DNA of 41,091 bases from Eledone cirrhosa (Eukaryota), in NCBI GenBank assembly GCA_964016885.1, contig CAXHJY010000441.1:1-41091 (forward strand), given 5' to 3'. Below the pieces are notes generated by a model that worked only from the letters and a program-made list of their open reading frames with translations, was not told where the DNA came from and did not search any database. Shown in pieces: positions 2,835 to 28,110 of the stretch (position 1 is its first letter; each line of letters opens with the position of its first letter). A program made the translations under genes and the position numbers.

Positions 2835-3235
2835 ATGGTGGTGGTGGTGGTGGTATGTTGGTGGTGGTGGTGTGTTGGTGGTGGTGGTGGTGTGGTGGTG
2901 GTGGTGTGGTGGTGGTGGTGGTGGTGGTGTGGTGTTGGTGGTGTTGGTGGTGGTGGAGGTGGTAGTGGAGGTGGTAGTAGTGGTGGTGATGATGGCAGTG
3001 GTGAAGGTGGTAGTAGTGTTGGTGGCGATGATGGTGGTGATGGATGTGGTAGTAGTGGTGGTGATGGTAGTGGTAGTGGTGATGGTAGTGATGGTGTTGA
3101 TGGTGGTGGGACGGCAGTGGTGGAGGTGGTGTTGTTGGCGGTGGTGATGGAGGTGGTGGGACGGTGGTGGTGATGGTAGTAGTGGTGGTGGTGGTGTTGA
3201 TGGGACGGTGGTGGTGGTGATAGTGGAGGTGGTGA
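2835..3235. repeat. (GGT)n-type degenerate trinucleotide repeat
   Basis: Directly visible. Confidence 0.95.
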
Positions 3236-3425
3236 AGGTGGATTGGCAGAGTCAAACACCTCTGTGATATTTGTTCTGGCTCTTTACATTCTGAGTTCAA
3301 ATCTTGCCTTTCATCTTTCCGGGTATAAATAAAATAAGGTACCAGTTAAATACTGGGGTTCATTCAATCAACTTTGCCTTTCCCATAAATTTGCTGGCCT
3401 TGTGTCTAAATTAGATATCATTATT
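3236..3425 (+). mobile_element. Decayed copy of the 210-392 SINE family
   Basis: ggattggcagag...ctttacattctgagttcaaatc ttgcctttcatc...taaaataaggtaccagt...tgctggccttgtg. Confidence 0.65.
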
Positions 3426-3758
3426 TTGGAAATGTACGCAGATGAACAATTCAAAATAAAATTTGGCTCAGAATCATGAATCAATTTTCTTAGTGTAATT
3501 TTAGTCATGAAAATATAGAGTAGAAGAAATAATGATAGAAAAGGGTTTGGTACTAAACCACTATCATCATCATCATCCTCATTTAACAACCATTTTCCCT
3601 GCAAGGGTTGGACAGGTTGTCATAGACTAAGTCAGTACTTCATCAGAGCTACTGACCTCTCAGATAAACTAGGAGTAAGGGATGAGGGTCGAGGTCTCAT
3701 TTCTCAATTACATATGTTTCTGTAATATACAGAGTGTACTAAGTACATTTTATTGTGG

Positions 3759-4387
3759 GACCATCAGTACAGAGGTTGACCATCAGTACAGAGGTTGACC
3801 ATCACTACAGAGGTTGACCATCACTACAGAGGTTGACCACCACTACAGAGGTTGACCACCACTACAGAGGTAGACCACCACTACAGAGGTTGACCATCAG
3901 TACAGAGGTTGACCATCAGTACAGAGGTTGACCACCACTACAGAGGTTGATCACCACTACAGAGGTTGACCATCAGTACAGAGGTTGACCATCAGTACAG
4001 AGGTTGACCATCAGTACAGAGGTTGACCACCACTACAGAGGTTGACCATCAGTACAGAGGTTGACCATCAGTACAGAGGTTGCCCACCACTACAGAGGTT
4101 GACCATCAGTACAGAGGTTGACCATCAGTACAGAGTTTGACCACCACTACAGAGGTTGACCATCAATACAGAGGTTGACCACCACTACAGAGGTTGACCA
4201 CCACTACAGAGGTTGACCATCAGTACAGAGGTTGACCATCAGTACAGAGGTTGACCATCAGTACAGAGGTTGACCATCAGTACAGAGGTTGACCATCAGT
4301 ACAGAGGTTGATCACCACTACAGAGGTTGACCATCAGTACAGAGGTTGACCATCACTACAGAGGTTGACCATCAGTACAGAGGTTGT
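3759..4387. repeat. 19-bp minisatellite, ~33 units
   Basis: Unit gaccatcagtacagaggtt interspersed with variant gaccaccactacagaggtt. Confidence 0.95.
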
Positions 4388-4447
4388 CATGTCTTTAACA
4401 CAACTGAAGAATTCTTCCGATCCTTTGTTTGGCTGTCTCCAGCTGGA

Positions 4448-4735
4448 TATCATCATCAACATCATCATCACCATTCAACATGTCTTCTCTGCTAGCAAAG
4501 GTTGGATAAGTTTTCACAGAGCAAGTCAGTATTCAGGCCAAACCATCAGGCAGGGTGGGGGCATGTATCTCACATACTCTCTATTGAGTGCATTTGGATG
4601 TGGTACCAGCACAGGGAGGTTATCCTGTTTTTACACAGATAAAGGGTCCTCCTGACCCTTTGTTTGGCAGGTTTTCTACAGCTGAGCACCCTTCCTATCA
4701 CCACCACTTTACAGAGTGTACTGGGTGTTTTGACC
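4448..4735 (-). mobile_element. Decayed RTE-type SINE/LINE 3' tail
   Basis: (CAT)n start, then ttttctacagctg..cacccttcctatcacca ccactttacagagtgtactgggtg, the reverse complement of the tail seen at 18625-18685 and 27825-27870. Confidence 0.55.
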
Positions 4736-4799
4736 TCGTTTGGGAGGGGCAGGGCATTTCTCTACTTGGTGCCAAAAACAATGTTGCAATTGATGGCAA

Positions 4800-5138
4800 G
4801 TGATGGTGGTGATGATGTTAGTGATGGTGATGATGATGAGGGCATTGGTGATGACAATGATGGTAGTAATGATAATCGTAATGATGGTGATCATGGTGTT
4901 AGTGATGATAATGGTGATGGTGGTGTTAGTGATGATGATGGTGATGGTGGTGATGAAGCTAGTTATGATGATGATTGTTGTGATGGTATTGATTGTGGTA
5001 GTGTTGGTGTTGATGGTCGTGATGGTGATAATGATAGTGTTGATGTCGTTAGTGATGGTGATGATATTGATGATGGTAGTAATAATAATGTTGATGACGA
5101 TGATGGTGGTAGTAATGATGGTGGTGATGATGATGGTG
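4800..5138. repeat. (GAT/GGT)n degenerate repeat
   Basis: Directly visible. Confidence 0.9.
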
Positions 5139-5699
5139 TTTATCAGTACATCTAAATCAATAACAAACACTTCTAAAAGCCAAGACTGTACCAAACTAAA
5201 GAAGAGAAGACATCAATATATTAACAGACAGAAGAGTAGGCGGCAGAAGACAGCCATTGGAATATATAATACCAGACAGTATAAGACAGCTACTGGAATT
5301 GTTTGCCAATATCTCCAAAATTGTTCACACAACTCTCTCTTTCTCTCTCAGACACCTCCTCACTGGTGCACCACCTCCTCCAACAGATAACTCTTCCTCT
5401 CACACACACTTCTTTACAAGCATAGCATTTCCTCACACTCTTCATCACAGACTGAGGTCTTCCTCACAGAATGAGCATTTCTTCACAGAATGAGCTCTTC
5501 CTTGTAAAATAAGCTCTTCCTTGTAGAATCAGCTCTTCCTTGTAGAATGAGCTCTTCAACTCAAACCAAGCTCTTCTTTCAACACCCTTCCTCATGCAAT
5601 CCGCTTCATAAATCCAGCTCTTCTTCATGCAATTCCTCATAGACCTAGCTTTTCTTCACAGATCCAACTCTTCTTCACAGATCTAGTGCAAGTGTCACA

Positions 5700-5880
5700 A
5701 CAAAAAGTACCCCCTCACCCACCCCCTGTAAAGTGGCCATGCTGCTGCTAAGACAAAAAAAAAACACCCAGTCCACTCTGCAAGGTGGTCATGCTGGTTC
5801 AAGGAGAGAAAGCACCCAGTCGGCCATGTAAGGTGAAGTGTTTGGCATTAAGAAGGGAATCCAGCCATAGAAGACCAAAC
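5700..5880 (+). mobile_element. Decayed SINE/RTE 3' region with an internally repeated aaaa.cacccagt..actctgtaa.gtgg motif
   Basis: Ends ttggcattaagaagggaatccagccatagaa, similar to 18655-18685. Confidence 0.5.
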
Positions 5881-6094
5881 TGAAAACAGAACATATGACC
5901 AAGATGTGACAAGGTTGGCCCATTGAATTACAGGTATAACTTAATTTGGAGCAACATGAATAAAGTAGTGTATTACTGAAGTATATGACACACTCCTGGG
6001 TATCAAACTCACAAACTTACAATGTTGAGCCAAACACCTTAACTACTAAAAGATGTTTATTAGTCTGGTACTTATCCCAGTTTCATTGGTATTA

Positions 6095-6282
6095 AGTGAC
6101 TGAGAGTATAAGACTCTTCCCCTGGACAGAACGCCAGTCCATTGCAGGTACTCATTTTCAGCTGAGTATACTGGAGCAATGTGAAATAAAGTGTTTTTCT
6201 CGAGAACGCAACACACAACCCAGTCCAGGAATCGAACTCACAACATTATAATCATAAGGTGAACACCCTTACCACTAAGCTG
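6095..6282 (-). mobile_element. tRNA-derived SINE (same family as 18419-18763); a second fragment lies at ~5948-6050
   Basis: Reverse complement reads gcttagtggtaagg...tgtgagttcgattcctgg...ctttatttcacattgctccagtatactcagctg. Confidence 0.7.
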
Positions 6283-6316
6283 CTGTCTGGAACTTAATTT
6301 AACAAATTCTTACATA

Positions 6317-6525
6317 TCACCACCACCACCAATACCATCATCAACGCTACCACCATCACCACCCCACCAGTATCATCATCATCATCATCACTACCACCAC
6401 CACTACCATCATTAGCATCATCACCACCACCACCATCACTACCATTATCACTACCACCACCACCACCACCATCATTATTATCATGGTGCTGATGATGGTG
6501 GTGGTGGTGGTGATAGTAATGATGT
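6317..6525. repeat. (CAC/CAT)n followed by inverted (GGT/GAT)n
   Basis: Directly visible. Confidence 0.85.
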
Positions 6526-7044
6526 AAAGTGCCATAAATATACTAGCATGGGTCATGCCAGTAACATTTCAATCTACTACGGTATCCTTTGTATTTAAAT
6601 TGTAATGTCTATGGAAACGATGCTGTTTTCCCATCTATTCATCGCAAACATTCAGTTGAAGCTTTTGAAATTAAAAACTATTCCCGCCATGTTCATATTC
6701 TCTTCAGATTTCAGCTTAACTTGGATAACTGCTTTCCAGAGTTCTTGGCTAATTCAACCAGTTCATAATTCTTTTGTAAAGCTTGTATGGATACCAAAAG
6801 CACATACATAACTGCCTCTATATCTTTCATATTCCATTTATTCAGACAAAGCCTTTCCCTGGAGTAGCAGATTACTTATTGAGATTCTTTATCAAATAAA
6901 TACTGCATATCAACAGAAATAGGCTCATCTGAGGCTGATCTTCATCAAATTTTAACTCTTTTCACATGAAACTATCTGAAACCATCTCTCATTCAGCAAA
7001 TACTAAACTTAATATTGATGTTTCTATTTATCTAAAAAGATTCC

Positions 7045-7375
7045 ATCATGGTTTTATGTAAGAATCTATGTTAAGTTATGTTCCAAACAGCAACTCAATG
7101 AGAAAGTTTGTTATATTACTAAAGTTCAAATTCTTGGTAAAGAAAAGTTTAAAGTGTTTATGTTTTTCTAAAAACCTTCTGCCATAATTTTATGTAAGAA
7201 CCTTTAAGTTATGTTCCAAACAACAGCTTAATGATGACATTATTACTAAATCTTTTCAAATTCTTGACTATTTTCAAAATGATCTCAAAACCATAGGCAG
7301 TGTCTTCCATAAGAAATCTGGTAATAAAACCACAGGTAGTTTCTTCCATAAGAAATCTGGTTATAAAAGGGTCAA
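7045..7375 (-). mobile_element. Second, inverted and decayed copy of the 1071-1701 MITE family
   Basis: cttccataagaaatctggttataaaagggtcaa is the reverse complement of the 48-bp unit; ttttatgtaagaacctttaagttatgttccaaaca and tattactaaa match 1530-1605 reversed; the terminal unit is duplicated here too. Confidence 0.65.
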
Positions 7376-7559
7376 TTTTGCCCCCTACCCATCTATTATT
7401 AAATGGATTCTATATTTTTTAATACTATAACTTCTTATTGTTTTAATTAACACATTATCATACAAGGGGTTGAGCATATGAGTGTGACATCTGGTAACAC
7501 TGGCGTAGTTTAGCCACATATACAGGAGCAGCCCTGGAAGATTACCACACCAACTTCTG

Positions 7560-7740
7560 ACACAACAGCGACCCATGTACTGGAGAATCTACCACAGATC
7601 ACCGAAGAAGACATGGGAGAAACAAATCGAGGAGGACCTGAAATTAGAGCACCTTGACCTCAACCAGACTAAGGTCAGTGCCAAGGATAGAAAAGTATGG
7701 AAGAACATCATGATCAGAGTCCATCATCCAGTGGAACCCA
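7560..7740 (+). pseudogene. RTE-clade LINE ORF C-terminal remnant
   Basis: Manual translation ...RSPKKTWEKQIEEDLKLEHLDLNQTKVSAKDRKVWKNIM matches the RTE C-terminal R(G/S)RPKxTW...DL...DRxxW pattern also seen at 27470-27570. Confidence 0.6.
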
Positions 7741-8603
7741 TCGCAGCATATTGATTGAAAGGACAGCCACCCCTAATCACCAGCTAGGGATCAAAGAAGA
7801 ACAACTAACTAACCCTCTTGGTCCCGACTGACAGAATACATTGGCCTGAAGGACAGCGAGGGGGTTGAGCTGGAACAGTCACTTCCCCTCACCTGTTGGT
7901 GACCAACTCTTCTCCAATAACACTGAGTAGGGATGTGGTCAGGGGGCCAAGAATGCCAGAATCTCCACAGTTACAGGCTTCTATTTCTACCTCTTATTTT
8001 AAAAAAAATTTTTCAGGGTCAATTCCCTCCCACCCTATTTTTGTCTTTCTTCAGGGTCAATTCCCTTCCCCCTATTTTCTTCTTTCTCTTGGGTCAATCC
8101 CCCCCCCCCCCTCTATTGTCATTATGACATTGTAAAAGTATTTTAAAAGTAAAATTTAAAAACAAAAAATACACAATAAAAGTAGCTATCTGATTTTCTT
8201 AATTCAATGAAACATGCAGCAAATTATTTGGTATATCATCTTGTTCTTCAACCTCTTCAATTCTGGCATATTGTCTCTGCTGATTTAATTCTCTTAGAAA
8301 ATAAGTCAATAAAATTGAAGATTTTTCTTTGTTTTGCAGTCAGTTTTTTTTTCTATTTTATTGTTATTTAAAAAATTGTTTTTTATATTTTAACTCCATG
8401 AAAATATATTTTAAATCAATAACAGTTCTCATTATAGCACTACAGCCACCTATCTCTTGAAATTTACATATGACATTTAGTATATATATATATATACATA
8501 TATATATGTGTGTGTGTGTGTGTAAATATATACACATATATAAGTGTGTTTGGCAATATTTACACACGTGTGTGGTGTGTGTGTGTGTATATATATATAT
8601 ATA

Positions 8604-8654
<51 letters not shown>

Positions 8655-8665
8655 TATTCTGTGCG

Positions 8666-8727
8666 TACAAACCCATGCAAGCGTGGAACACGGACGTTAA
8701 ACGTTGATGATGATGATGATGATGATG
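8666..8727 (+). mobile_element. Extreme 3' tip of RTE/SINE with (GAT)n tail
   Basis: caaacccatgcaagcgtggaacacggacgttaaacg+(gat)n, nearly identical to 28048-28110. Confidence 0.8.
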
Positions 8728-9442
8728 TAGTCTGATGTAGTGTTTCTACTTTAGGTTCTTTGCTTACACCAGGCAACACAAAAGCTAATCTTCTGCTTGA
8801 TCAACTTTTTCACAATTTACATAGATCAGATGAAAATTTCCCTTAAATACTTCCCAAGTTGAAACACTTTTCACTTAGGTTTTGCATCTATAAACACATT
8901 TAACTCTATTTTTCACTTCCAAGCTTCCCATTTTTCTTTGTTACAAGGATATAATAAATATATATAATATAAATAAATATTTATATATATACACATAATT
9001 TATATATATGCATGTGTCTATATATATATCTATATATATATATCTATATCTATATCTATATATCTATATCTATATATCTATATATCTATATATATATATA
9101 TATATATATATATCTATATATCTATATATAAAAACAAATAACGAAACGAAATTAAATTTCGTTTCGTTTGTAACTCACTTTTGTATGACTGACGCTTAAA
9201 CATCGAAACTAGTCCAATATTCCTTGTCTGGCTTTCTGGAGAATAGAGGAAAGGTGTTTCCTCAAAAACCAGTATGACTCTAAAAACCGGTTTGTCTGTG
9301 TGTTTACATACAGAATAGCTGGACACTCACAGTAAAGTGACCAGTGAAAAACTCGGTACATCTACATATGTACACGTGTGTGTATTCATATGCATACTAG
9401 TATTTCAGTATACATATGTGGATGTACATTTTTAACTTAATT

Positions 9443-10433
9443 ATCTATCTATATCTATCTATATCTATCTATATCTATCTATATCTATCTATCTATATCT
9501 ATATCTATATCTATATATATCTATATCTATATCTATATATATCTATATCTATATATATCTATATATATCTATATATATATATCTATATATATATATCTAT
9601 ATATATATATCTATATCTATATATATCTATATATATCTATATATATATATCTATATATATATATCTATATATATATATCTATATATATCTATATATATAT
9701 ATCTATATATATCTATATATATATATCTATATATATATATATCTATATATATCTATATCTATATCTATATATATCTATATATATCTATATCTATATATAT
9801 CTATATATATCTATATCTATATATATCTATATATATCTATATCTATATATATCTATATATATCTATATCTATATATATCTATATATATCTATATCTATAT
9901 ATATCTATATATATCTATATCTATATATATCTATATATATCTATATATATCTATATCTATATATATCTATATATATCTATATCTATATATATCTATATCT
10001 ATATATATCTATATATATCTATATATATATATATCTATATCTATATATATATATATCTATATATATATATATCTATATATATATATATCTATATCTATAT
10101 CTATATATATCTATATATATATCTATATCTATATCTATATCTATATATATCTATATATATATCTATATCTATATATATATATATCTATATATATATATAT
10201 CTATATCTATATATCTATATATATCTATATATCTATATATCTATATATATCTATATCTATATATCTATATATATATCTATATATATATCTATATATATAT
10301 ATATCTATATATATATATATCTATATATATATATATCTATATATATATATATCTATATATATATATATCTATATATATATATCTATATATATATATATAT
10401 ATCTATATATATATCTATATATATATATATATA

Positions 10434-10472
<39 letters not shown>

Positions 10473-10549
10473 ATATATATATATATATATCTATATATCT
10501 ATATATATATATATATATATATCTATATATATATATATATATCTATATA

Positions 10550-10602
<53 letters not shown>

Positions 10603-10748
10603 ATATCTATATCTCTATCTATCTATATCTATCTATATCTATCTATCTATATCTATCTATCTATATCTATATCTATCTATATCTATCTATCTATATCTAT
10701 CTATATCTATCTATCTATCTATATCTATCTATCTATATCTATCTATCT
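9443..10748. repeat. 1.3-kb (TA)n/(TATC)n microsatellite
   Basis: Directly visible. Confidence 0.95.
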
Positions 10749-10749
10749 C

Positions 10750-11700
10750 ACGGCTCTCTGGCAGGCGGACCCGGCTGTCAGTGGAGAATCCACCTCGTCA
10801 TTCTATAGAGGGCTGGTGGTTAGCAGGTGCGACGACGCCCTCGGAGAAGCCCTAGGCATGGAGGAAGACGAACTGGCCAACCTGTTCGGTAGGACATTCA
10901 GCCCGGGACCCATGGATAACTTCCAGAGGTCCCTGGCCTGGCAATGCTACAGAAGGGCTCTGCCCGTTCGAGAAAGGCTCTACAGACACGGGCGCCCGGG
11001 TAGGGACCCATCGAAAAAGATCTGTCCCAGATGCGTGTGCGACGAGGAAACCGTTGCACACGCATTGGTACACTGCTCGGGCATTGCCGATCTGTGGGGT
11101 TACGTCGAACAACTGCTGTCAAGGGTGGGACCAATCCGGTTGACCACCGAGTCTATTGTAACGATCAAGCCGCCTCCCCTCTTCAAAAACGAAGGAGAGG
11201 CGGTGTTTCTGTGCGTAATAGCCATGGCGAAAGAGGTTGTATAGTGGACGAGTCTGAAAGGACTGAGGTCAGACACCTTTCTCTCTGGCCAACAACTGGT
11301 CCATTTCTTCCGATATCATTTCGGAAGAAGGATCAGGATGGAGAGAGAGGTGCTGCACCCCAGCCGTTTCTATGAAAGATGGGTGAAAGTGGCGAGAATG
11401 GCCCGTGTGAATGGGCCTTCACTCTACATCAGACTATAGGTGAGGAAGATGAAAGACCAAGGGAGCACCCCTTCTCTGTGCTCCTGAGGAGAAGGGTTGC
11501 ACACTTTTTTCGGGGGTGTGTGCGACCCCCCAAGGCGCCTCCTCTCTATTGAGGACTTTGTTATAAATTTTATTTTTTGTTATATTTTATTTTATTTTTA
11601 TATATTGTTATTGCCTCCTCCTTATTGGGGATGCCTTGTTTTGTAAACTCCCCCATTGTACTTGTCCCACTTTTGATGCCCTGGTGGCAAATAAAAGAAA
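10750..11700 (+). mobile_element. 5'-truncated Tx1-clade LINE copy A (ORF2 C-terminal zinc finger + 3' UTR)
   Basis: ORF 10816-11244 (CPRC...HALVHC) is homologous to 16520-17317; premature TAG at 11242-11244 where copy B has TGG; ends aataaaagaaa then (TATC)n. Confidence 0.9.
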
Positions 11701-11983
11701 CATATCTATCTATATCTATCTATCTATCTATCTATATCTATCTATATCTATCTATCTATCTATCTATCTTTCTGTCTAACGTGCGGAATATCGTCGGTAA
11801 GTTTTTTGTTAATTTCTATGCAAAAAACCGATCTAATTGTTTGAAAAAAATACAACACTTTGTAGATTAACCCCCAAGCTGAATTGTCAGCCGGGTGGTA
11901 ATCCCATTTTTCGCCCCTGTAGGGGCGAAAATTTTATTTAAAAGTTTGTCTTAAAATATCAAATTTTACAAAGTAAAAAAAAC

Positions 11984-13852
11984 TTGAGCAACACTAGAAC
12001 GCTGGAGAACGTTAATAGTGAAAAGAGAGAGAAAGAGGCAGATATTAACGTTATATCTGCTTCTGCTGCTATGGACGTTGCCATAGATACTGTCACAAAA
12101 GAAAAAAATATATCAACATTTGAAAATGTTACAATTTCTACCGCCGAAGCGGAGAAAAATGACAATAACACACGGGAAAACACGGCAAAAAAACCCATTG
12201 ACATACATACACATGAAAAAGACATCAACAACTCTACAGATACATCTACACATAAAATTTCCAACAACGATAACATCATTATTAACAACAACATCACACA
12301 AAAAAAGAAAATGTCTTTTGCTGACACAGTCAACAAGAAACAAGATTTTATAAATCTTGATATCTCCAACGCAAGAGATATGCTCCAGCAAGGGAGAAAA
12401 TTTGTAACTTTCGAAGAAAGAGGTGGGTTTAGAATTAACTCACCCCTTGAAATAAAGGAAGACACAAACCGCCGATCAGTCACTTTTAGGACTGTGTCAA
12501 ATTCGTCAAGAAAACCGACATTTGTTAATCAGTCAGATATAGAAGATTCTTTCAAGGAGATTCTAGGAAATGTCGATTTTCTCCAGCGAGGAAAACAGTA
12601 CGGAAGTGTTTCCGTACTGTTTAAAAGCGAGACACTGGCCCAAAAAAACTCTGTGACACCAATAGTGTCAAAAGCATACACCTTTTTCCCTACATACATG
12701 GGGAAAAGGACACAAAAAATAAAAATAAAAAACATACCTCCAAGCATTAACATCTGGTGGATCTTGGCTGGCTTCGTAGAGCCAGAAACAGACATAATAC
12801 TTTCGATACGAAAATCCATTCGACAAAGGTGGGCGGGCACCGATTTGGAGATTCTGTTGCAAATGAAACCGGAGAGAATCTCCAAAATACCCGAAAGAGT
12901 CGTTATTGATAATAACAACAAAATAAACATTTCGGTAGAAGGAAGAAAATTTCACTGCTTTCGCTGTGGTAGCACATCTCACCTAAAAGCCTCTTGTCCA
13001 CAAACACACAACAGCAACATCATAAAAAAAACGCTATTACCAACACCAACACCAAAACAACCACCACCACAAGTACAATGACAGACGAAACGAACAACCA
13101 CACCAAAACAAACAGACACTCAACCAACAACAACAGAAAAAACAGAGACAACACCCCTGAAGAACACATCCCCACTCCATCCCACTCCATCAAACACTAC
13201 CACAAACACACATACCGAAACACCACCACCACCACACAACATACCCTTACCCCACACACCTGACGATGATTATTCATCGACGGATGAAGCTGCTTCTCCT
13301 TCTTTAAGTGAAGAAGAGGGAGAACCGCGGAAATCAAAAAAACAAAAAAAGAGACACCACAAAACCCCCAAAACTCCAATCACCAACACCAACACACAAC
13401 CACAGACACAAACAACACAAACAACACCACAGTCAAACACCCCCCTATCAGCAAAACCAGCACCAACACCACCCCAAACACAAGCACCCACCATAAAAAG
13501 AAAACTCCCAGATGAACAACAAACTAAAACAATACAACAAAAACACAAACAACAATACGCATACATCAACACAAACAACAAGAGTTTGATGGAGGTCATC
13601 TCCCAAAACCCCAAGGTGGAGACGGAGGGCAAAACTTTCGTCAAGGCAGAATCGTCTCCACACCTTAAACTTATAAGGGTTCCTATGGAAACCTATAAAG
13701 ACCTGAAAATTAAATTTTCACAGGACGTGGGCAACCCCTGCCACAAACCCATCAACCGCGTCCTGTTGAAAGGTTTCCCCACCCCACCCAACACCCCATC
13801 CAGCACCCAAATGGAGATTGAACAACCCGATCTCCAGGAAACGAAAAGGTAA
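11984..13852 (+). pseudogene. Tx1 ORF1 (gag-like, CX2CX4HX4C knuckle, P/T/Q-rich tail) interrupted by one in-frame TGA
   Basis: CFRCGSTSHLKASC motif; the frame stays open after TGA 13079-13081 (QTKRTTTPKQ...) through to the in-frame ORF 13586-13852; the true start is uncertain (TTG 11984 or ATG ~12071). Confidence 0.8.
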
Positions 13853-13893
13853 GTGCACCTTTCGTCCTTTTTCTCCAACTTTTCTTCACCAAC

Positions 13894-16800
13894 ATGGCTG
13901 GTTTACGAGTTGGAACCGTGAATGTGCGTGGCCTAGGGATGCCCTGGAAACAGGGCCAACTTTTAAACGACCTTAGGTCACACAGTATGGATGTGATAGC
14001 CATTACCGAGTCCAGAATCCACAACAGGCAGCAACTAACCCCTATCTTCGACGACTTTGATATCTACGCATCTCTCTGTCAGCCAGGAGGTGGAGGTGGA
14101 GTGGCTGTTATGTTTCGGAAGAACCTGGACGTCGGAGTACAGCAAGTACACTTGGACCCGGAGGGTAGACTGGTAGTCCTAGACGTGAACAGTATCGGAG
14201 GTGGAGCCTTCAGACTGGTGGCCGTTTATGCCCCGACCGGGCAATCGCAATCACGGCCAGACTTCTTTAAGCGTCTAGAGTCTTTTCTGGGAACGTCTCG
14301 CTCCTTACTTTTAGTGGGGGACTGGAATGGTATCCTAGATGCACGATGGGACTATGTGGGAGCATGTCCCAGTAGAGCGGGGTGCAACAGCCTCAAAACT
14401 TTAATCGGCCAATTCCAACTGGCCGATAGGTATCGACTGGATTTCCCGACTGCACCACAGTGGACGTGGGTAAACCGCAGTGGGACATCTAGATCGTATT
14501 TAGATAGGTTCTTCATTAGAGAAAGGGACAAGGATATGTTAAGCTGTCCACGAATGCACATGGTTGCCTATTCAGATCACAAGTTAGTCGTCTGCTTAGT
14601 CAACCGTGATAGAATACATAGACAGGGTCCCGGATACTGGAAGCTGAACGTGTCGTTGCCGGCACGTAAAGCTTACAGTGAACGGATAAGTAAACTAGTC
14701 AAGCAACAGTTAACGGGAGCCATCGTCAACAATAGATGGTGGTACTCTCTCAAGAAAGCAATTAGAATAGAATCGATAGGGTATAGCAGAGAGTTAGCCT
14801 TAGACAAAAACAGAATAGAAAGAGAACTAGTAGCCAAGGTAGAGGAGGCACTTAGAAGTGGCAACGCGGCTAGAGTGTTAGCGTCGAGAACGGCACTGGA
14901 CCAGTTCTTCGATGCGAAACACGAAGGCTGCGTGGTCAGAAGCAAAACACGTGCTCTAGGAAACAAAGGAGCGAAAGCTGTCAGCTGGGCCCGAGTGGCG
15001 GAGGCAAAAAGTGGCAACAAGTCCACGATTCGGTCTTTGAAAGACCAAAACGGACGCGTGCTACTTGACCCCAAGCAAATGTGCGCGGCCTTTCAGCGGC
15101 ACTTTGCGCGACTGTTTGAGCAGAACGACAGTGAGCCGAACGGGGCAATGGACTTTAGTTCATACCTCGACGGCCTGCCGCGTCTCTCGAACACGGACGC
15201 CGAGTTCTGCGAAAGACCGATCACGGACACTGAGATACGGGACGCTCTGGGCCGCTGCGGGAAACGCAAGTCACCCGGTCTAGATGGTCTACCCTACGAA
15301 TTTTACATAGGCATGCCGGACTTGTTCTCTGGCGTCCTCGAAGCCGTCTACTGCAATTGGCAGCAGAACGGGAGAATTCCCAGTTCTGCAGGCAAGGGCG
15401 TAGTAACGCTGATCAGGAAAGACGAGAACAAGGGGGACGAAATTAACAACTTCAGGCCCATAACTCTGCTCAACACAGAGTTAAAGATTTTGGCCAAGGT
15501 GCTAGCGACGAGGTTGGCGCTTGTCGTCGAGAACCTGGTAGGGAAAGCGCAAACGTGTGCAATTCCGACCAGGTCCATACACGACAACCTCCACCTCATG
15601 CGATACATCATAGAGAGGGTGGGTAGTAAACCCGGCTTCGGTGGGGCTCTGATCAACTTGGATCAGTCTAAGGCATTCGATAGGGTCGACCATCGATACT
15701 TGGAAGCGGTTCTCAAGGCGGCCGGTTTCGGTCCCGTGTTCAGAGGATGGATCGAGGCGATGCACACCAGCATCTGCTCGAGGGTCAAGGTAAACGGCTA
15801 CCTATCGGAGCCGTTCGCAATCACGCGTTCCATTCGACAGGGATGCCCTCTCTCCTCCATTCTGTATGTATTGACTCTAGAGCCACTACTGCGGAAATTG
15901 GAGCTGTTGCAGGGCATCCCACTAGAACCGGGACTGCGCAAAGCGGCGTCGGCTTATGCCGACGACGTGACAGTAATGGTGTCGAGCACCTCGGAAATCG
16001 GGGTGATCGGCAACATACTGAAAGAATACGAAACGCTGACGGGAGCAAAACTAAACCCAGACAAGTCTGTCGGTTTGCAACTCGGTACGTGGAGAGGCAA
16101 ACCGATGACATCCGACAGCGTCGTTGGACGCTGGACGGACGGACCGGTGAAATTGCTCGGGGTCTGGTTCGGTCCAGACCTCCAGGTGGAGAAAAACTGG
16201 AACGAGGTCACGGCCAAGGTGTTTGCACTCACTCAGAAGTGGGCAGAGTGCAAACTGTCCTTGAAAGGTCGAGCGGAGGTGGCGAACACTTTCATAGCGT
16301 CCGTCATCTACTACCGCTTGACTGTCGTGCCTTGTCCCCGTGAACACCTCGCCAAGATGGAACGCATGCTCTTCCAGTTTCTGTGGAAGAAGCAGGCTCC
16401 GCTGGTGAGGAGATCCGTCTGCTGTCAGCACCCTTCCAACGGAGGGCTGGGAATGCCGTGGCTGATGATGCGTAAACATGCGCTGAGGCTGCGGCATCTC
16501 CAGGTATTCCTCACCGTTTGTGAGACAGGCTTTCCCACAGCTCGTCTCGCTAACGGAGCTGCAGTCCTGGGTGAAGAAAAGACCGAAAACGATGGGCGCC
16601 TGGCACATTGAATGCGCTCAGGCGCTCACAGTCCTCTGGCAAGCGGGCGCAGCAATCAGTGGAGACTCCACTTCGACATTCTATAGAGGGATTGTACGTT
16701 ACAAGGGCGACGACGTGCTCGGAGAGACTCTGGGCGTCGAAGACGATGAGCTCACCAGTATGTTTGGTAGGACTTTCCGCCCGGGACCTATGGACAACTT

Positions 16801-17317
16801 CCAGAGGTCCCTGGTCTGGCAGTGCTACCGAGGAGCTCTACCGGTTCGTGACAAGATCTACAGGCACGGACGCCCTGGCAGGGATCCTTCCAAGAGGACG
16901 TGTCCAAGATGTGCGCAGGACATTGAAACAGTTCTGCACGCAATTGTACACTGCCCGGGCGTAAGCGACCTGTGGAACTATGCAGAACAACTGCTGTCGC
17001 GTATGGGACAAATACAGTTGACTGCCGAGTCCATAGTAAGGATCAAACCGCCAGACTCTTTCAAAAACGAAAGAGAGGCGGTTTTCCTCTGTACGGTGGC
17101 TATGGTGAAAGAAGTTATATGGTGGACGAGGTTGAGAGGACTGAGGACAGATGCCTTTCTCTCCGGACAACAATTGATTCCATTCTTTAAGTATCACTTT
17201 AGAAGGAGAATCAGGGTGGAGAGAGAGGCACTGCACCCCAGTAAATTTACTGAAAGGTGGGTGAATGAAGCGAAAATGGCCAGAGTGATTGGGCCTTCTC
17301 TGTTTATAAGCCTGTAG
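13894..17317 (+). pseudogene. Tx1 ORF2: apurinic-like endonuclease, reverse transcriptase, C-terminal zinc finger; one frameshift near 16510
   Basis: TVNVRG, GDWN, SDH (APE); GLDG, FRPITLLN, LDQSKAFD, RQGCPLS, AYADD (RT); continues in +1 frame SPFVRQAFPQL...CPRC...HAIVHC. Confidence 0.93.
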
Positions 17318-17590
17318 GTTGAGGAAGAGAGCAAAAGGAAGAAAGGAGCACTTGCACAACACGCTCCTTGAGTTGAGGGTTGTTCTATCGACGGAGTATT
17401 AAACAACCCATTTGTGGCGCCTCCCCCCTATTGGGGATTTCGATTGTTGAAATTGTTTGTTTTTATATTTTTTACACGACTGTATGTAAAATCCCCGGCA
17501 TGTCTTTGTATTGTCCCCTTTCTTGTTGCGCCCTTGTGGCTAATAAAGAAATCTATCTATCTATATATCTATCTATATATCTATCTATAT

Positions 17591-17891
17591 AAAGGTGGGT
17601 GAAAGTGGCGAGAATGGCCCGAGTGAATGGGCCTTCTCTCTATATCAGCCTGTAGGTTGAGGAAAAGGAGGAGGAGAGGAAAGGAGTACAAGCTCTTCGT
17701 ACTCCTGGAGATGAGGGTTGCACATTTTTTTCGGGGGTCTGTGTTACCCATATAAACTGTCTCCCTCTATTGGGGAAAATCGACTAACTTTTAAATTCCA
17801 TCTGTGATAACATTTTACACGTTTTTATTGTATGTAAACTTCCCCCTTTGTATTTGTCCCCTTCTTTTGTGCCCCTGTGGCTAATAAAGAA
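17591..17891 (+). mobile_element. Short 5'-truncated Tx1 copy C (last codons + 3' UTR)
   Basis: aaaggtgggtgaaagtggcgagaatggccc... matches 11376-11440 and 17253-17320; ends gtggctaataaagaaa then (TATC)n/(TA)n. Confidence 0.88.
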
Positions 17892-18418
17892 ATATATCTA
17901 TATATATCTATCTATATATATATATCTATATATATATATATATCTATATCTATCTATCTATCTATATATCTATCTATCTATATCTATATATCTATCTATC
18001 TATATATCTATCTATCTATATATCTATCTATCTATCTATCTATATATCTATCTATCTATCTATATATCTATCTATATATATATATATATCTATATATATA
18101 TATATATCTATATATATATATATATCTATATATATATATATATCTATATATATATCTATATATATATCTATATATATATCTATATCTATATCTATATCTA
18201 TATCTATATATATATCTATATATATCTCTATATATATATATATCTATATCTCTATATATATATATATATATATCTATATATATCTCTATATATATATCTA
18301 TATATATCTCTATATATATATCTATATATATATCTATATATATCTCTATATATATATCTATATATATCTCTATATATATATCTATATATATATCTATATA
18401 TCTATATATATATATATA

Positions 18419-18763
18419 TGGAGGCACATGGCTTAGTGGTTAGAGCATTGGCCTTGCAATCGAAAGGTTGTGAGTTCAATTCTCAGACCGGGTGGTGTGT
18501 TGTTTCCTTGAGCAAGACTCTTTATTTCAAATTGCTCCAGTTTACTCAGCTGTAGAAATGAGATGATAGGGACTGAGGTCCTTATCATTCCACTGCAAAG
18601 TGGTCGTGTAGGTGCCACGGCAAAAAAGCACCCAGCACTCACTGTAAATGAGGTTGGTGTTAGGAAGGGCATCCAGCTGTAGAAATCAAGCCAGAATCAG
18701 TTCCCGTCCCACCCTTGCAAGCAGGGAAAAGCGGACGTAAAATGAAATGATGATGAATGATGA
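18419..18763 (+). mobile_element. tRNA-derived SINE with RTE-like 3' tail
   Basis: A box tggcttagtgg (18429-18439), B box gttcaattc (18474-18482), tail shares cactgtaaatg.ggttggtgttaggaagggcatccagctgtagaaa and gcaagc...cggacg.aaa(tga)n with the RTE 3' UTR. Confidence 0.85.
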
Positions 18764-19093
18764 TATATATATCTATATATATATCTATATATATATATAT
18801 ATCTATATATATATCTATATATATATCTATATATATATCTATATATATATCTATATATATATATATATATATATATCTATATATATATATATATATATAT
18901 ATCTATATATATCTCTATATATATATATCTATATATCTCTATATATATCTCTATATCTCTATATATATATCTCTATATATATATCTCTATATATATATCT
19001 CTATATATATATCTCTCTATATATATATCTCTATATATATATCTATATATCTATATATATATATATATCTATATATCTATATATATCTATATA

Positions 19094-19146
<53 letters not shown>

Positions 19147-19291
19147 ATCTATCTATATATATATATATATTTATATATATCTATATATCTATATATTTAA
19201 CGAAGGAAATGTGGTAAGGAACCAGGTGGACCATAACGCACCAAAGTACTCAATACTTGAGGTAGTAGAGTGGATAATAGGAACCAGTAAG

Positions 19292-19385
19292 ACCCCGACA
19301 GCTGAGCTCAAGCCGTTTCGACGGCTAATTCTGGACTAAATGAAAATTTATCCTGGTATTTAAATAGCCGATCTTCTCAAGGGGT
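19292..19385 (-). ncRNA. Type I hammerhead ribozyme (U3-A8 variant), inverted copy
   Basis: Reverse complement of 21241-21334. Confidence 0.75.
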
Positions 19386-21240
19386 AATTCCATATATGGT
19401 CAAAGTGATTGTCAAAAATCAGTAGTAATTCTGTGGTTGCAAATTAGTAGCGGAGATGGTGGCTAAACCTGCCAGTAGGAGAAAGAGGGGAGGGGGTGGA
19501 GTAGCCCCAATCAAGCGTTTGTAGTGCCAGCTACAGCTGGGCATGAGGTCAAAGAAGATACAGGGGAGGGGGAGGGGGGGAAGTCGGAACGGTAGGTAGA
19601 ACAATGGGGGGTAGAAATATATAGGAAAGAAAAAATACTGAGAGTGAAGAAAAGCAAATAAGTGTAAAGAAAAACAAATGAGTGTAAAGAAAGTAAAGTA
19701 AATTAAATTCTACGACCTAGGTCTCTAGCTATTGTTAGTCTAGAATAAATAAATAAATAAAGAAAGAAAGAAAGAAGTAAAGAAAGAAATAAAGAAATAA
19801 CGAAATAAGTAAAAGAACTAGGTGGGACGGAATAGGCGAGGACCCTTTTAAGAGGTATAAGTACGTAAATGATACGGTGACGGGTCAACAAAAGGGGCCA
19901 AAATACTAAAGAGACTACCACGAAATAAACAATAAAGGTTTCCATCCCGGGCACAATTCCAGCAACCACCCAGTGCAGCAAAGTGAACTGTTTTCGACGG
20001 ACCAACTCCTAAACAAGAAAGATGAACTGGTTACTGCATGTAAACATAGATTGCGTAGGACTTACCTCGCCCTCAAACCCCATAATGACCCGGGGGGGTA
20101 GACTAGGGCTATAACACCCCACTTGCCGATTTTGTAATGGGTAACCCCTGCTTGCCAAGGGAGACGTAAGATCTTCTTTGTATTCTTTTATCGCTTCCTT
20201 TATTTCCTTCCTTCCCCCCTCTCTCCTTAGTCCTTCTACCCCAGCTCTTCTCCTTTGTCGGCGTCTTTTCTCGCCCACCCGAGGCTGCCCTTTGGCCCAT
20301 TGTAGCCTTAGTACCCCTACCCCCTCCCCTAGTCTAGGATAGATTTGGCGGACTCCGCCCTTTATAGCAGTTGGTTTAGACCCCGGATACTTGTCCCCTT
20401 TTTCCGACCGCTCCCACTATTCTCTGTGCCCTCTATATTTCTTAGTGGCACTTATGCCTTATTTTTTCGTTTCAGTATTTCTTTCTTCGCTTTTCTTTTG
20501 GGCGGGGTGGATTCTGAATTTATTCTTCCGCATTCTACCTTTACTTCGTACGAACTTTCATGTAGCTTGTTTTAGATCTTTTAGAGTTAGCATTAGTATA
20601 TATTTTTCTCGGAACTCAGAATTATTATCTCGTATTAGTTCACTTTGCTGCACTGGGTGGTTGCTGGAATTGTGCCCGGGATGGAAACCTTTATTGTTTA
20701 TTTCGTGGTAGTCTCTTTAGTATTTTGGCCCCTTTTGTTGACCCGTCACCGTATCATTTACGTACTTATACCTCTTAAAAGGGTCCTCGCCTATTCCGTC
20801 CCACCTAGTTCTTTTACTTATTTCGTTATTTCTTTATTTCTTTCTTTACTTCTTTCTTTCTTTATTTATTTATTTATTTATTCTAGACTAACAATAGCTA
20901 GAGACCTAGGTCGTAGAATTTAATTTACTTTACTTTCTTTACACTCATTTGTTTTTCTTTACACTTATTTGCTTTTCTTCACTCTCAGTATTTTTTCTTT
21001 CCTATATATTTCTACCCCCATTGTTCTACCTACCGTTCCGACTTCCTCCCCCTCTCCCTCCCCTGTATCTTCTTTGACCTCATGCCCAGCTGTAGCTGGC
21101 ACTACAAACGCTTGATTGGGGCTACTCCACCCCCTCCCCTCTTTCTCCTACTGACAGGTTTAGCCACCATCTCCCCTACTAATTTGCAACCACAGAATTA
21201 CTACTGATTTTTGACAATCACTTTGACCATATATGGAATT

Positions 21241-21334
21241 ACCCCTTGAGAAGATCGGCTATTTAAATACCAGGATAAATTTTCATTTAGTCCAGAATTA
21301 GCCGTCGAAACGGCTTGAGCTCAGCTGTCGGGGT
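21241..21334 (+). ncRNA. Type I hammerhead ribozyme (U3-A8 variant core)
   Basis: Helix I acccc/ggggt; core UUGAGAA; helix II ga(t)cggcta/tagccgtc; GAAA; helix III cggct/agctg with loop tgagctc; GUC cleavage triplet ending 21329. Confidence 0.75.
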
Positions 21335-21368
21335 CTTACTGGTTCCTATATATATATTTATATATATA

Positions 21369-21421
<53 letters not shown>

Positions 21422-21469
21422 TAAGAGAGTAAAACAAAGAATCCTTTAATACATCAAAAGTTTTTATTA

Positions 21470-21507
21470 GCCGACAATGTTTTGTCCTATTAAGGACTCA
21501 TCAGGGC
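21470..21507 (-). ncRNA. Minimal type I hammerhead ribozyme with G12A substitution (likely inactive) in a Penelope-type 3' end (~21420-21690)
   Basis: Reverse complement: gcc CTGATGA gtcct-taat-aggac AAAA c att GTC ggc. Confidence 0.7.
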
Positions 21508-22550
21508 AATCAAATCAACAAGAGGTAATTTCGGCAGATACAAGACAGAAACTCTGAAGAATATGGAGTGTACATACACTAATGTCTTACAAAGATATAC
21601 GATAATAAAAATGAAGATAAAAATAATAAAATTATAATAACTAAGGATGTAGATAACATTAAGAACAATATTACAAATATAGTCCATATTACAAATATAT
21701 ATATATAGATATATATATATATATATCTATATAAAATATTAAAAAAATAATGAATAAAACAATGAAACAGTTCCTTATATTAAACAAAAAAAGTTCATTA
21801 TTTAACGATCGTTTCTAGGACATATATGTGTTAGAATTGGCATGCATATTCAAAAGATCTATGTACAAAATTATACAAAATTATACAAACTATCAAATAG
21901 AATATACATACCAACACATACATATGCCGTCTTCAGAAATAATGAAGTATATTTATTGATAATAACAACAATTCAAAATTACAGGTCTGTTTGGGAACAG
22001 ATTTTAAATAGACCAATGAAATACATAAAAATACATCAAGAAAATACAGTTAGGTGTGTGTATATATGCAAGTAACTTCGTTCACAGATATGCATAAAAG
22101 TGTATGTTCACATGCATACGCATGTCGAAAAAGTGTATGTAAATACAAAAATTCAGGGCTAATGTCTCGGTATGTTTATAATCCACAGACAAAATACACA
22201 TACGTATACATACATATATACACTCATATACACACACATATACATACATTCATACACACACACGCATATACACATAAACATACACATACCCACGAACACA
22301 CACACACACACAGACACACACACATACACACATACGTATATATTATTATTATAACTATATGGATATTATTATAACTATATGGATACACTTACATCTAGAT
22401 GCAGAACTAAAAATAGGTAAGGGAGTAAGTAAATTACAGAGGGTGTCAGACTCAGCATATTTATAAAAATGTATCTATAAATTTAGAAATAAAAAGAAAT
22501 ATATTAAAAGAAATAAACAAGTAAAAGATATACTCATACATATAAATACA

Positions 22551-22590
<40 letters not shown>

Positions 22591-23241
22591 CATATATATA
22601 TATACATACATATACACACACACATATATATACACACATACTCACAACACATATATACATATATGTACACACACATACACACATACATACATATACATAT
22701 ACATACATATACATATATATATATATACACACACATATATATATACACACACATACATATACGTATATATACATACACACACATACCCATGTATATATAC
22801 ACACAACCACACACTCACACACAACTCAGACATACATAAATATAGAGACATACATACACACATATATACATATACATATATACATACATATAAATATATA
22901 TACACACATATATATACACACATATATATATATATATATATAAAAAAATAAATAAATACACAGTCAGACAATTATGCACATATATACACATACATACACA
23001 TATCTCTACAAATACATATACATACACATACATACATACACATATATATACATATATATATATATTTATAAATATATATATACCCCAAAATACCAACATA
23101 AAACCAATTTTCTCTAACTCCTCTAATATAAAGTATAGTAACTCTCAAAAAACTACTCATCATACAACTCTAATAAATGTTAATAATAAAACTCCTAATA
23201 AACAAGATAAAACACCTAAATCAATAAATCTAACTAAAAAT

Positions 23242-24027
23242 GTGCGTGGTGAAGTCATTAACATTAATCCTCCTAGTAAACATCCCGATGCATCCTATAA
23301 AAACAATAAACAACATAGAAACCGTAATAGACGAGTTACTTGGTATAATGCTCCATTTAATTTACAAATTAAGGATAATATTGCTAAAAAATTGTTTAAT
23401 ATCCTAGAGAAAAACTTCCTGCCAAACCACAAATACCATCAAATCTTAAATAGATCAACAGTTAAATTCTCATACTCAACAACCAAAAACATAAAACAAA
23501 ATATAAGTGCCTATAATGCATATAAATGTAAAAAAACCATAAGTATACCACCAATACATCAAACTAACCATAATATCTCCTCAAATACAGAATTAACGAA
23601 AGGTTGTAACTGTAGAAACAAAGCAAACTGCCCATTAAAAGGAAATTGTCTTGTTAACAACATAGTTTATAAATGTAAAGTTAAAACTAAAGATTCTATT
23701 TGCTCATATATAGGAGCTACTTCTAACAATTTTAAGGTAAGGTTTAATACCCACAAACATAGTTTTAAAAATGCTGCACTGGCTAATACAACATCTCTAG
23801 CAGAAAAAATTAATAGTTATAGAAATAATATAGAATATGATATGACCTGGAGTGTGCTCAAAAGAGCCACCCCTTATCAAAATAATAGAAATGAATGTAG
23901 ATTGTGTTCCCAAGAACTATTTGAAATAATGAAATCTAAGGATATCCTATTAAATAAGCGACAGGAATTAATTATATCGTGTAATCATAAACTGAGAAAA
24001 ACATTTAAATATTATAAACCTAATTAA
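23242..24027 (+). pseudogene. Penelope-like element C-terminal part: linker + GIY-YIG endonuclease (RT deleted)
   Basis: WYNAPF, CNCR..NCPLKGNCL, IVYKCKV...SYIG, RFNTHK, CRLCSQE motifs; homologous to the C-terminal half of 30252-31958. Confidence 0.88.
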
Positions 24028-24870
24028 CAATATATATTTTAGAAATTAATATATAATTTAATTTAAATGTAGTTAACCTATAATTTTAATTTAATTAAAA
24101 TTCTACTACAGATGAATTAAAAAAATATTGTGTAATCATAAATTGTGAAAAACTTTTAAATATTATTAACATAATTAATATATACTTTGGAAATTAATTT
24201 ATAGATTAATTTTAGTTTATTTAACCTTTTATTAAAATTCCTTTACAGATGAAATATAACAAAATATCGTGTAATCAATAACAGAGAAATACTTTTTAAT
24301 ATTATAAACCTAATTAATGTACAATTTAGAAATTAATTTATAAATTAATTTTAATTTAGTTAACCTATAATTTTAATTTAGTTAGCTTAAAATTAAAATT
24401 CTAATACAGATGGATTGCAGAATATCATGTAATCATAAACTGAGAAAAACTTTTAAATATATACCTAATTAATATATTCTTTACAAATAAATATATAGAT
24501 TAATTTTAATTTTAGTTAACCTATAATTATATTCTACTATAGATAAAATACAAAATTTGCTTTAATTATTATAAACCTAATTAACATATACTATAGAAAT
24601 TAATATATAATTTTTAATTTAGTTAACCTATAATTAATACTCTACTACCGATGAAATATACTTGATTTGGCTTTCCCTATTACTAAATTCATTTCCTAAA
24701 TTTGATACCATCATGTTAATATTTTTAATTTAGTTATGCTATAATTAATACTCTACTACTGTTTAACTTCAAAATTCCGCTTTAAATATTATAAACCTAA
24801 GTAGTATACACCTTAGAAATTAATATATTAACTATTTTTACTTTAATTAACCTATAATTAATAGTCTACT
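23973..24870. repeat. Degenerate ~140-155-bp tandem repeat that includes the ORF end and stop codon, ~6 units
   Basis: tatcgtgtaatcataaactgagaaaaac.tttaaatattataaacctaattaa recurs at ~23975, 24126, 24265, 24423 and partially at ~24560 and 24781. Confidence 0.8.
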
Positions 24871-25129
24871 TATATTAAAATGCATAATTTTGCCTTCTTT
24901 CTGACACTACTATGTAAACACATATTATGATTTAAATGCAGATTAATATTCTATGTTCCTTGAAACCTATATTTACTATTTCTCACTAATAATTTTAATC
25001 CCGCCCCCTATAATTATTTGTATTTGTAAGTGTGGATGTATGTATGTGTATGTAAGTATGTATGTATGTTTGTGTGTTTGTATGTGAGTATAAAAATACA
25101 TATGTGCACATGTAAATAAGTGTGTATGA

Positions 25130-25183
<54 letters not shown>

Positions 25184-25269
25184 GTGTGTATGTATGTATG
25201 TGTATGTATATGTATTTGTAGAGATATGTGTATGTATGTGTATATATGTGCATAATTGTCTGACTGTAT

Positions 25270-25323
<54 letters not shown>

Positions 25324-25596
25324 ATATATATTTATATGTATGTATATATGTATATATGTGTGTATGTATGTCTCTATATTTATGTATGTCTGAGTTGTGT
25401 GTGAGTGTGTGGTTGTGTGTATATATATGTGTGTGTATATATATATGTGTGTGTATATATATATATATGTATATGTATGTATATATATATGTGTATGTGT
25501 GTATGTGTGTGTACATATATGTATATATGTGTGTTGTGAGTATGTGTGTATATATATGTGTGTGTATGTGTATATGTATGTATATATATATATGTA

Positions 25597-25640
<44 letters not shown>

Positions 25641-26575
25641 TGTATTTATATGTATGAGTATATCTTTTACTTGTTTATTTCTTTTAATATATTTCTTTTT
25701 ATTTCTAAATTTATAGATACATTTTTATAAATATGCTGAGTCTGACACCCTCTGTAATTTACTTACTCCCTTACCTATTTTTAGTTCTGCATCTAGATGT
25801 AAGTGTATGTGGCCGTGTTTATGTGTGCGCCTCGATATCCATATAGTTATAATAATAATATATACGTATGTGTGTGTGTGTGTGTTCGTGGGTATGTGTA
25901 TGTTTATGTGTATATGCGTGTGTGTGTATGAATGTATGTATATGTGTGTATATATGAGTGTATATATGTATGTATACGTATGTGTATTTTGTCTGTGGAT
26001 TATAAACATACAGAGACATTAGCCCTGAATTTTTGTATTTACATACACTTTTTCGACATGCGTATGCATGTGAACATACACTTTTATGCATATCTGTGAA
26101 CGAAGTTACTTGCATATATACACACACCTAACTGTATTTTCTTGATGTATTTTTATGTATTTCATTGGTCTATTTAAAATCTGTTCCCAAACAGACCTGT
26201 AATTTTGAATTGTTGTTATTATCAATAAATATACTTCATTATTTCTGAAGACGGCATACGTATGTGTTGGTATGTATATTCTATTTGATAGTTTGTATAA
26301 TTTTGTACATAGATCTTTTGAATATGCATGCCAATTCTAACACATATATGTCCTAGAAACGATCGTTAAATAATGAACTTTTTTTGTTTAATATAAGGAA
26401 CTGTTTCATTGTTTTATTCATTATTTTTTTAATATTTTATCTTGACTCTGTATTCCGTTTATCTTTCACCGAAAGTGATTTTTGAATGCATCTCTTCTTT
26501 CCATGATATCCGGATTACATTGAGTTCTTCATACAGATTGGACACTACCGTAAACTTTTGGTAGATTTATCTACA

Positions 26576-28110
<1,535 letters not shown>

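Follow-up and report, generated by a model that had tools for sequence, protein, structure and literature searches.

A head-to-tail stack of three LINE copies in a TA/TC repeat of Eledone cirrhosa points to a probably TATC-preferring, Tx1-like lineage

Contig CAXHJY010000441.1 of the cephalopod Eledone cirrhosa (assembly GCA_964016885.1), analysed here over its 41,091 nt (the window), contains three copies of long interspersed nuclear elements (LINEs). We call them A, B and C; all lie on the + strand and are stacked head-to-tail in a microsatellite built from TA and TC units. The LINE lineage of these copies is probably TATC-preferring and Tx1-like, analogous to Kibi and Koshi, as judged from the sequence of this locus. 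We assign a probability of roughly 0.58 to the account in which separate LINE families inserted independently, in the same orientation, in one TATC-rich patch because the machinery of their lineage prefers a TATC-containing repeat. The stack and its flanking arrays comprise the following features (ORF, open reading frame; UTR, untranslated region; SINE, short interspersed nuclear element).

9442 to 10748, + strand: array upstream of A, a TA/TC mosaic with TC-rich ends (about 21 C per 100 nt beside A) and a TA-rich middle; no Tx1 3' end precedes it
10749 to 11700, + strand: copy A, 5'-truncated, holding the 3'-terminal 230 codons of ORF2 (with a CCHC finger and an internal TAG at 11242-44) and the 3' UTR; terminus AATAAAAGAAA
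11701 to 11769, + strand: A-B spacer, 69 nt, TATC-rich, TA:TC units 18:15
11770 to 17551, + strand: copy B, a two-ORF LINE, near full-length and defective; terminus AATAAAGAAA
17552 to 17590, + strand: B-C spacer, 39 nt, TA:TC units 13:7
17591 to 17892, + strand: copy C, about 300 nt, 5'-truncated, holding the last 66 nt of ORF2 and the 3' UTR; terminus AATAAAGAAA
17893 to 18418, + strand: array downstream of C, a TA/TC mosaic with TA:TC units 200:63, continuing at 18764-19196 past an inserted SINE

Anatomy and independence of the three copies

TA/TC repeat adjoins all six junctions of A, B and C, and every copy ends in the same 3' terminus, AATAAA(A)GAAA. The 3' ends are intact in all three, long terminal repeats (LTRs) are absent, and the 5' junction of A shows a 2-nt CT microhomology (10747-48). 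An earlier note on this DNA, made from its letters alone, had described three copies in one orientation with this terminus and with repeats at both ends; all of this is borne out, with refined coordinates. A blastn search of the window with B as query found no fourth copy. RNA folding of the 3' ends of A, B and C and of the 5' end of B gave z scores of 0.42, -0.74, -0.76 and -0.62, that is, no unusual structure. As for small-RNA genes, Rfam over positions 8000-21500 returned sub-threshold matches only, mostly TA-repeat noise, and ARAGORN returned none.

The copies are 76-80% identical overall (blastn; 695/913 for A-B, 235/301 for A-C and 227/283 for B-C). An alignment of 228 codons gives 0.94 synonymous (dS) and 0.19 nonsynonymous (dN) substitutions per site between A and B, a dN/dS of 0.20, and their differences fall mostly at third codon positions (94, as against 43 at first and 36 at second positions, of 230 each). 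A and B are separate families that diverged under purifying selection while active. These values rule out a local duplication, and A and B are therefore independent insertions, as the earlier note had maintained for the stack as a whole; C is too short for a codon comparison. The same note had placed C closer to A than to B, which is not robust: the claim is true in the 66 coding nt only (60/66 as against 57/66) and is reversed in the 3' UTR (169/227 as against 169/216).

The shared orientation and the short spacers are compatible with reverse transcriptase (RT) jumping between templates, so that one event involving three RNAs could have produced the stack; alternatively the stack could be an assembly misjoin at microsatellites, and all of its joins do lie in low-complexity DNA. 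However, template jumping would need three long-diverged families present as RNA in one reaction, and the window is free of N and resolves multi-kb arrays, which suggests long reads that would span the 39-69-nt spacers. We regard a single event or an artefact as extremely improbable.

Repeat context and the evidence for a TATC preference

The flanks were initially described as (TATC)n. TATC is indeed present at the junctions, but the array is a TA/TC mosaic: perfect TATC runs nowhere in the window exceed 6 units, and TA outnumbers TC by 512 to 142 units upstream of A. In those TA arrays of the window that contain TC, the C lies on the + strand (TATCTATC occurs 57 times, GATAGATA 0 times), and the same is true of the TA/TC arrays that hold no Tx1 copy (9017-9130 and 26576-27065). 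Because of this strand bias, the common orientation relative to the repeat, which the earlier note had stressed and which holds for all three copies, counts as only one independent observation.

The position of the insertions within the array is more informative. All three sites fall inside a 106-nt stretch, in an array 2345 nt long (p about 0.006 under uniform placement). Two of them are enriched in TC: in 40-nt windows, 0.04% of array positions reach the density of the A site and 1.3% that of the B site, and in 30-nt windows the share is 1.2% for each. Counted per 30 nt, the six Tx1 junctions contain 6, 7, 7, 6, 4 and 3 TC, whereas 15 of 16 other array edges contain 0-2 and one contains 6 (Mann-Whitney p 3e-4); this comparison is descriptive only, since the control edges were picked by hand and the Tx1 flanks are not independent of each other. 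The 3' junctions of all three copies read GAAA-NN-TATCTAT. Among 200,000 random triples, a C-containing 7-mer was shared in register by 0.8% when sites were drawn from all arrays and by 3.8% when they were drawn from TC-rich patches (p 0.008-0.04). Finally, the 1.3-kb array on the 5' side of truncated copy A is TC-rich beside A, and this flank cannot be the tail of a Tx1 element because no copy lies upstream of it.

Several observations weigh against a TATC preference. The sample is one locus with three copies from three families. The C site is not enriched in TC (14-40% of array positions reach its density, 14% in 40-nt windows), and the enrichment at A is weaker in 20-nt windows, where 6.8% of positions match it. 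The 3' flank of A and the 5' flank of B are one shared spacer and thus non-independent, the non-Tx1 edge at 9443 equals the Tx1 edges in TC richness, and the common 3' register was noticed post hoc. Candidate target-site duplications (TSDs) of 23, 14 and 9 nt are equalled in 7%, 29% and 61% of draws under a null without TSDs (p 0.07-0.61). Furthermore, TA-type arrays occupy 11,192 of the 41,091 bases (27%), and 15 other inter-array segments longer than 100 nt are bracketed by TA arrays, among them a SINE in the stack's own array, two RTE-like copies and Penelope-like sequence.

This abundance of arrays, together with the ordinary TC density at the C site, favors an account in which TA arrays are a generic sink: insertion would follow at most a weak preference for AT or TA steps, and the TATC-rich spacers would be short, unexpanded remnants. 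According to the supplement of PMC13282606, L1-Tx1 elements of O. vulgaris form 80 families totalling 56 Mb, and its simple repeats make up 7.45%, so that a rare triple could surface in a genome scan. However, the nearly pure TA at 15 of the 16 other edges speaks against a generic sink, which predicts neither the tight clustering of the sites nor their common register. We therefore consider it rather unlikely.

The register is open to a second explanation, in which the element carries a TATC tail and inserts otherwise at random, with later copies sometimes hitting an older tail. The common GAAA-NN-TATCTAT junction, the absence of poly(A) and the distance of only 4-5 nt from AATAAA to the repeat in A, B and C would all fit. 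Nevertheless, a tail does not account for the 5' flank of A, which is TC-richest beside A, nor for the TA/TC arrays that lack a Tx1 copy, and the three 3' flanks diverge in composition past their first 9 nt. We consider a tail without targeting very improbable. Thus, of the two mechanisms that the earlier note had offered, a TATC tail that regenerates its own target is disfavoured if it acts alone, and a read-through TATC end acting alongside targeting is possible. The other, an endonuclease (EN) preference for (TATC)n/(GATA)n, is favored by the enrichment at A and B, the shared register and the 5' flank of A, and is weakened by the C site, the nonsignificant TSDs and the three-copy sample.

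The TA-rich part of the stack's array harbors one further insertion, which serves as a control outside the stack.

18419 to 18762, + strand: SINE-like element with a tRNA-like head (Rfam tRNA at 18429-18486, E 0.023, under the gathering score) and a (TGA)n-type tail

Several other features of the window touch its arrays. The segment 9131-9441 (311 nt, non-Tx1) lies between two TA/TC arrays, and its right edge is TC-rich like the Tx1 junctions. Segments 19197-21349, 21793-26378 and 29848-33114 are bounded by inverted repeats of about 97% identity, and all adjoin TA arrays; the latter two enclose ORFs at 22894-24027 and 30219-31958, which have no Pfam match and which we take, from their RT and GIY-YIG motifs, to be Penelope-like. 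Two copies at 27285-28110 (+) and 28283-29254 (-) are 94% identical and stand tail-to-tail across a 170-nt TA spacer; each begins at its 5' end in pure TA, contains an internal tandem repeat of 112 bp and finishes with a (TGA)n tail, and both are presumably RTE-like, judging by their motifs, with no Pfam match. A 7.5-kb TA/CA array (33578-41091, broken at 35064-35462) carries nearly all of its C on the + strand, the same bias as in the TA/TC arrays. Minisatellites occur at 1062-1487 (48 bp, 8.9 copies) and 3759-4386 (19 bp, 33 copies).

Coding content, relatives and a possible mechanism

Copies A, B and C belong to a lineage of APE-type non-LTR retrotransposons (LINEs). The coding content is best preserved in B, which has two ORFs.

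12071 to 13852, + strand: ORF1 of B, first ATG at 12071, in-frame TGA at 13079-81; one knuckle of the form CX2CX4HX4C (CFRCGSTSHLKASC); homology with the ORF1 of locus L004 of the sister lineage described below (E 2e-10); no Pfam match
13894 to 17317, + strand: ORF2 of B, with APE endonuclease (PF03372), RT (PF00078) and C-terminal zf-RVT/CCHC (PF13966) domains; frameshift near 16500

The Pfam matches in ORF2 have E values of 5e-14 (PF03372), 2e-27 (PF00078) and 2e-5 (PF13966, under the curated cut-off), and in an alignment with the human L1 EN the catalytic N, E, Y, D, N, D and H positions agree. No RNase H was found in B by Pfam. Copy B is defective: ORF1 has the in-frame TGA, and the frameshift in ORF2 coincides with the loss of about seven codons present in the related protein P0002. 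In A, the TAG interrupts ORF2 prematurely.

Tx1 elements have two ORFs, a CCHC knuckle in ORF1, a C-terminal CCHC finger in ORF2 and no RNase H. Copy B fits this layout, which within the L1 group is not confined to Tx1. The ORF1 of Tx1 elements also has an RRM-type fold upstream of the knuckle; in B, Pfam finds none there, and a single-sequence structure model (predicted local distance difference test, pLDDT, 35.5) was unusable. The Tx1 label fits because, as summarised in PMC6007223, site-specific members among APE-type LINEs are known only in the Tx1 and R1 clades. Our RT tree was built from sequences other than the named Tx1 elements (Tx1L, Keno, Kibi and Koshi), and "Tx1" is thus to be understood as Tx1-like. 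The nearest named protein, from Argonauta hians, is 72% identical to B and groups with it at 98/97 support in the RT tree, which points to an octopod host; P0002, P0101 and P0201-P0204 are among the closest proteins. An Atlas search returned only generic EN/RT clusters.

The splice-donor consensus GTAAGT occurs in B near the 5' end (11796-11801) and at the ORF1 stop (13849-13854). It also lies within 60 nt upstream of the ORF2 start in 51 of 51 starts matched among the fetched relative loci (overlapping loci counted twice). Splicing from the GTAAGT at the ORF1 stop to the first AG past the pyrimidine tract was considered and rejected, as a hand reading puts the resulting ORF1-ORF2 fusion out of frame.

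One scan of genome contigs gave 44 loci, of which 39 (L001-L037, L039 and L042) come from a single record, CAXXMW01. This record is labelled as a bacterial metagenome-assembled genome of Arenicella; its 15 matched contigs, 13-94 kb in length, are arrays of eukaryote-type LINEs, and they look like eukaryotic sequence that was binned by mistake with a bacterial genome. The LINE in question has a homologous ORF1, is 43-44% identical to B in ORF2 over most matches, and falls in the sister RT clade of B together with a cuttlefish protein. Its 49 distinct 3' ends on the 15 contigs are mostly 6.4-6.85 kb apart, on the same strand and uninterrupted; the arrays mix subfamilies (about 86-99% identical) and include 5'-truncated copies that abut a 3' end. 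The captured sequence, which excludes the array ends, shows neither a spacer nor a host target. These arrays are possibly those of a self-stacking or telomere-like LINE. No TA/TC repeat lies within 150 nt of their ends (0 of 50, one end probably being a misassigned AATAAA); as these are the nearest relatives for which surrounding DNA is available, this counts against a TATC preference.

Thus the wider lineage shares the habit of stacking but not the association with TATC, and this sustains a rival in which the lineage targets itself: new copies would land directly behind the 3' end, or ahead of the 5' end, of an existing one, the TATC being incidental to the first landing site. Such self-stacking draws its support from the microsatellite-free head-to-tail arrays of CAXXMW01. 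However, A, B and C are parted by 69 and 39 nt of repeat and show no direct joins, and the NN-TATCTAT register is left unexplained. The two lineages also form separate, supported RT clades and differ in the beta-hairpin loop of the EN: in B and three of four close relatives (the three that cover it) the loop has the length found in L1 and a conserved G-[ST]-[SA]-RSY motif, whereas in six aligned sister-group sequences it is variable and at least two residues longer. We therefore judge self-stacking improbable as the origin of the Eledone stack. PMC1950540 describes the beta-hairpin loop of the L1 EN as a targeting determinant that probes the target, and on this ground the short, conserved loop of B and its close relatives also speaks for a TATC preference. 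As a caution against such a reading, the same source reports that the loop is insufficient by itself to transfer specificity and is no modular switch.

Other relatives add further contexts. At L040, positions 3036-10166 hold a Tx1-like element with 31% ORF2 identity to B, placed between a complete U1 small nuclear RNA (snRNA) gene and a 5'-less U1 copy. The 3' part of U1 and its flank form an exact duplication of 159 nt, and the A-tail meets U1 near nt 37. The distance from AATAAA to the next sequence is 11 nt plus an A-run at L040 and about 17 nt in the CAXXMW01 lineage. The single copy at L040 is a candidate for a U1-targeting LINE that leaves an intact U1 upstream; the Fig. 3 legend of PMC4494074 does not list U1 as a target, and the literature searched contained no such report. 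The 3' region of L038 contains (TG)n, and L041, L043 and L044 were examined by tandem-repeat screen only.

If the lineage of A, B and C prefers TATC-containing repeats, its APE endonuclease may nick the GATA strand in constant register with a TATCTAT unit, and the nick would prime reverse transcription at the 3' end of the RNA, just past AATAAA(A)GAAA. Because AATAAA lies so close to the repeat and poly(A) is absent, transcription may run on for a few bases into the repeat and give the RNA a short TATC end able to pair with the nicked DNA; pairing between an RNA 3' end and target DNA is described for the I factor, R1Bm and R2Ol in PMC6007223. Each insertion would keep TATC repeat on either side, as a remnant of the array plus a probable short TSD. 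The target would thus survive insertion, and later families could insert beside earlier copies, a double-insertion route to head-to-tail stacks. A bolder version, which we hold to be decidedly unlikely, is that GATA/TATC targeting persists across long-diverged families without poly(A) by means of RNA read-through pairing, target and tail renewing one another and giving rise to stacks, and that the sister lineage dropped host targets and builds arrays of itself tens of kb long. If this were the case, the two lineages together would document a LINE that switches from one mode to the other, microsatellite targeting or self-stacking, while its endonuclease loop changes in step.

Comparison with known systems

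Microsatellite-targeting Tx1 elements are already known, and a TATC/GATA target would likely be new. PMC4494074 and PMC3812793 describe as microsatellite-preferring Kibi, for (TC)n, and Koshi, for (TTC)n, in teleosts, and crocodilian Tx1 elements for (TTCC)n/(TTTC)n. We found no report of a TATC/GATA-targeting Tx1 in the literature searched; Repbase, Kojima & Fujiwara 2004 and the supplement of PMC4494074 lay outside that search and may hold one. L1-Tx1 elements are abundant in octopus genomes, with 80 families in O. vulgaris, 13 of them recently active (PMC13282606, PMC8967140), and these repeat surveys, in the parts available to us, report no target preference for cephalopod L1-Tx1.

Like A, B and C, the Kibi, Koshi and crocodilian elements are APE-type non-LTR elements found in TC-containing microsatellites (PMC4494074, PMC3812793). 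Unlike for Kibi and Koshi, the repeat here is a TA/TC mosaic containing TATC, the host is a cephalopod and the specificity is read from one locus; the comparison is one of descriptions rather than of sequences. PMC4494074 speaks of microsatellite specificity when more than 20% of the genomic copies of a family are flanked by the target. Within the window, 3 of 3 copies are so flanked, and they come from three families.

The tandems that R1 and jockey form by double insertion resemble the Eledone stack in their head-to-tail copies, target-derived sequence between the copies and distinct 5' truncations (PMC5932611). They differ in that each involves one family, whereas the Eledone stack involves three (dS about 0.9), and in that an exact TSD takes the place of the 39-69-nt microsatellite spacers; the precedent, moreover, is from the R1 clade and from ribosomal DNA (rDNA). 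SART1 and TRAS1 likewise show strand-specific, fixed-register insertion in a short telomeric repeat, as proposed here, with RNA-target pairing also proposed; unlike A, B and C, they belong to the R1 clade and have real poly(A), about 20 nt in genomic SART1Bm (PMC7265360). A further comparison is with the CAXXMW01 lineage, which also stacks head-to-tail and shares with B a homologous, knuckle-bearing ORF1 as well as the two GTAAGT sites, one close to the 5' end and one at the stop of ORF1. It differs from A, B and C in forming pure, microsatellite-free arrays, in a distance of roughly 17 nt from AATAAA to the following copy, and in an EN loop at least two residues longer.

A TATC preference would imply no new class of mechanism. 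If true, it would add TATC/GATA to the TC-containing microsatellite targets of Tx1-like LINEs and widen the known host range of such targeting to cephalopods, in whose genomes both TA arrays and L1-Tx1 elements abound, and it would help to explain how these TA arrays turn into nests of retroelements. How APE endonucleases change their targets is described in PMC3812793 as not well understood; the short-loop endonucleases associated with TATC and the long-loop endonucleases associated with self-arrays would then provide a natural pair in which to study such a change.

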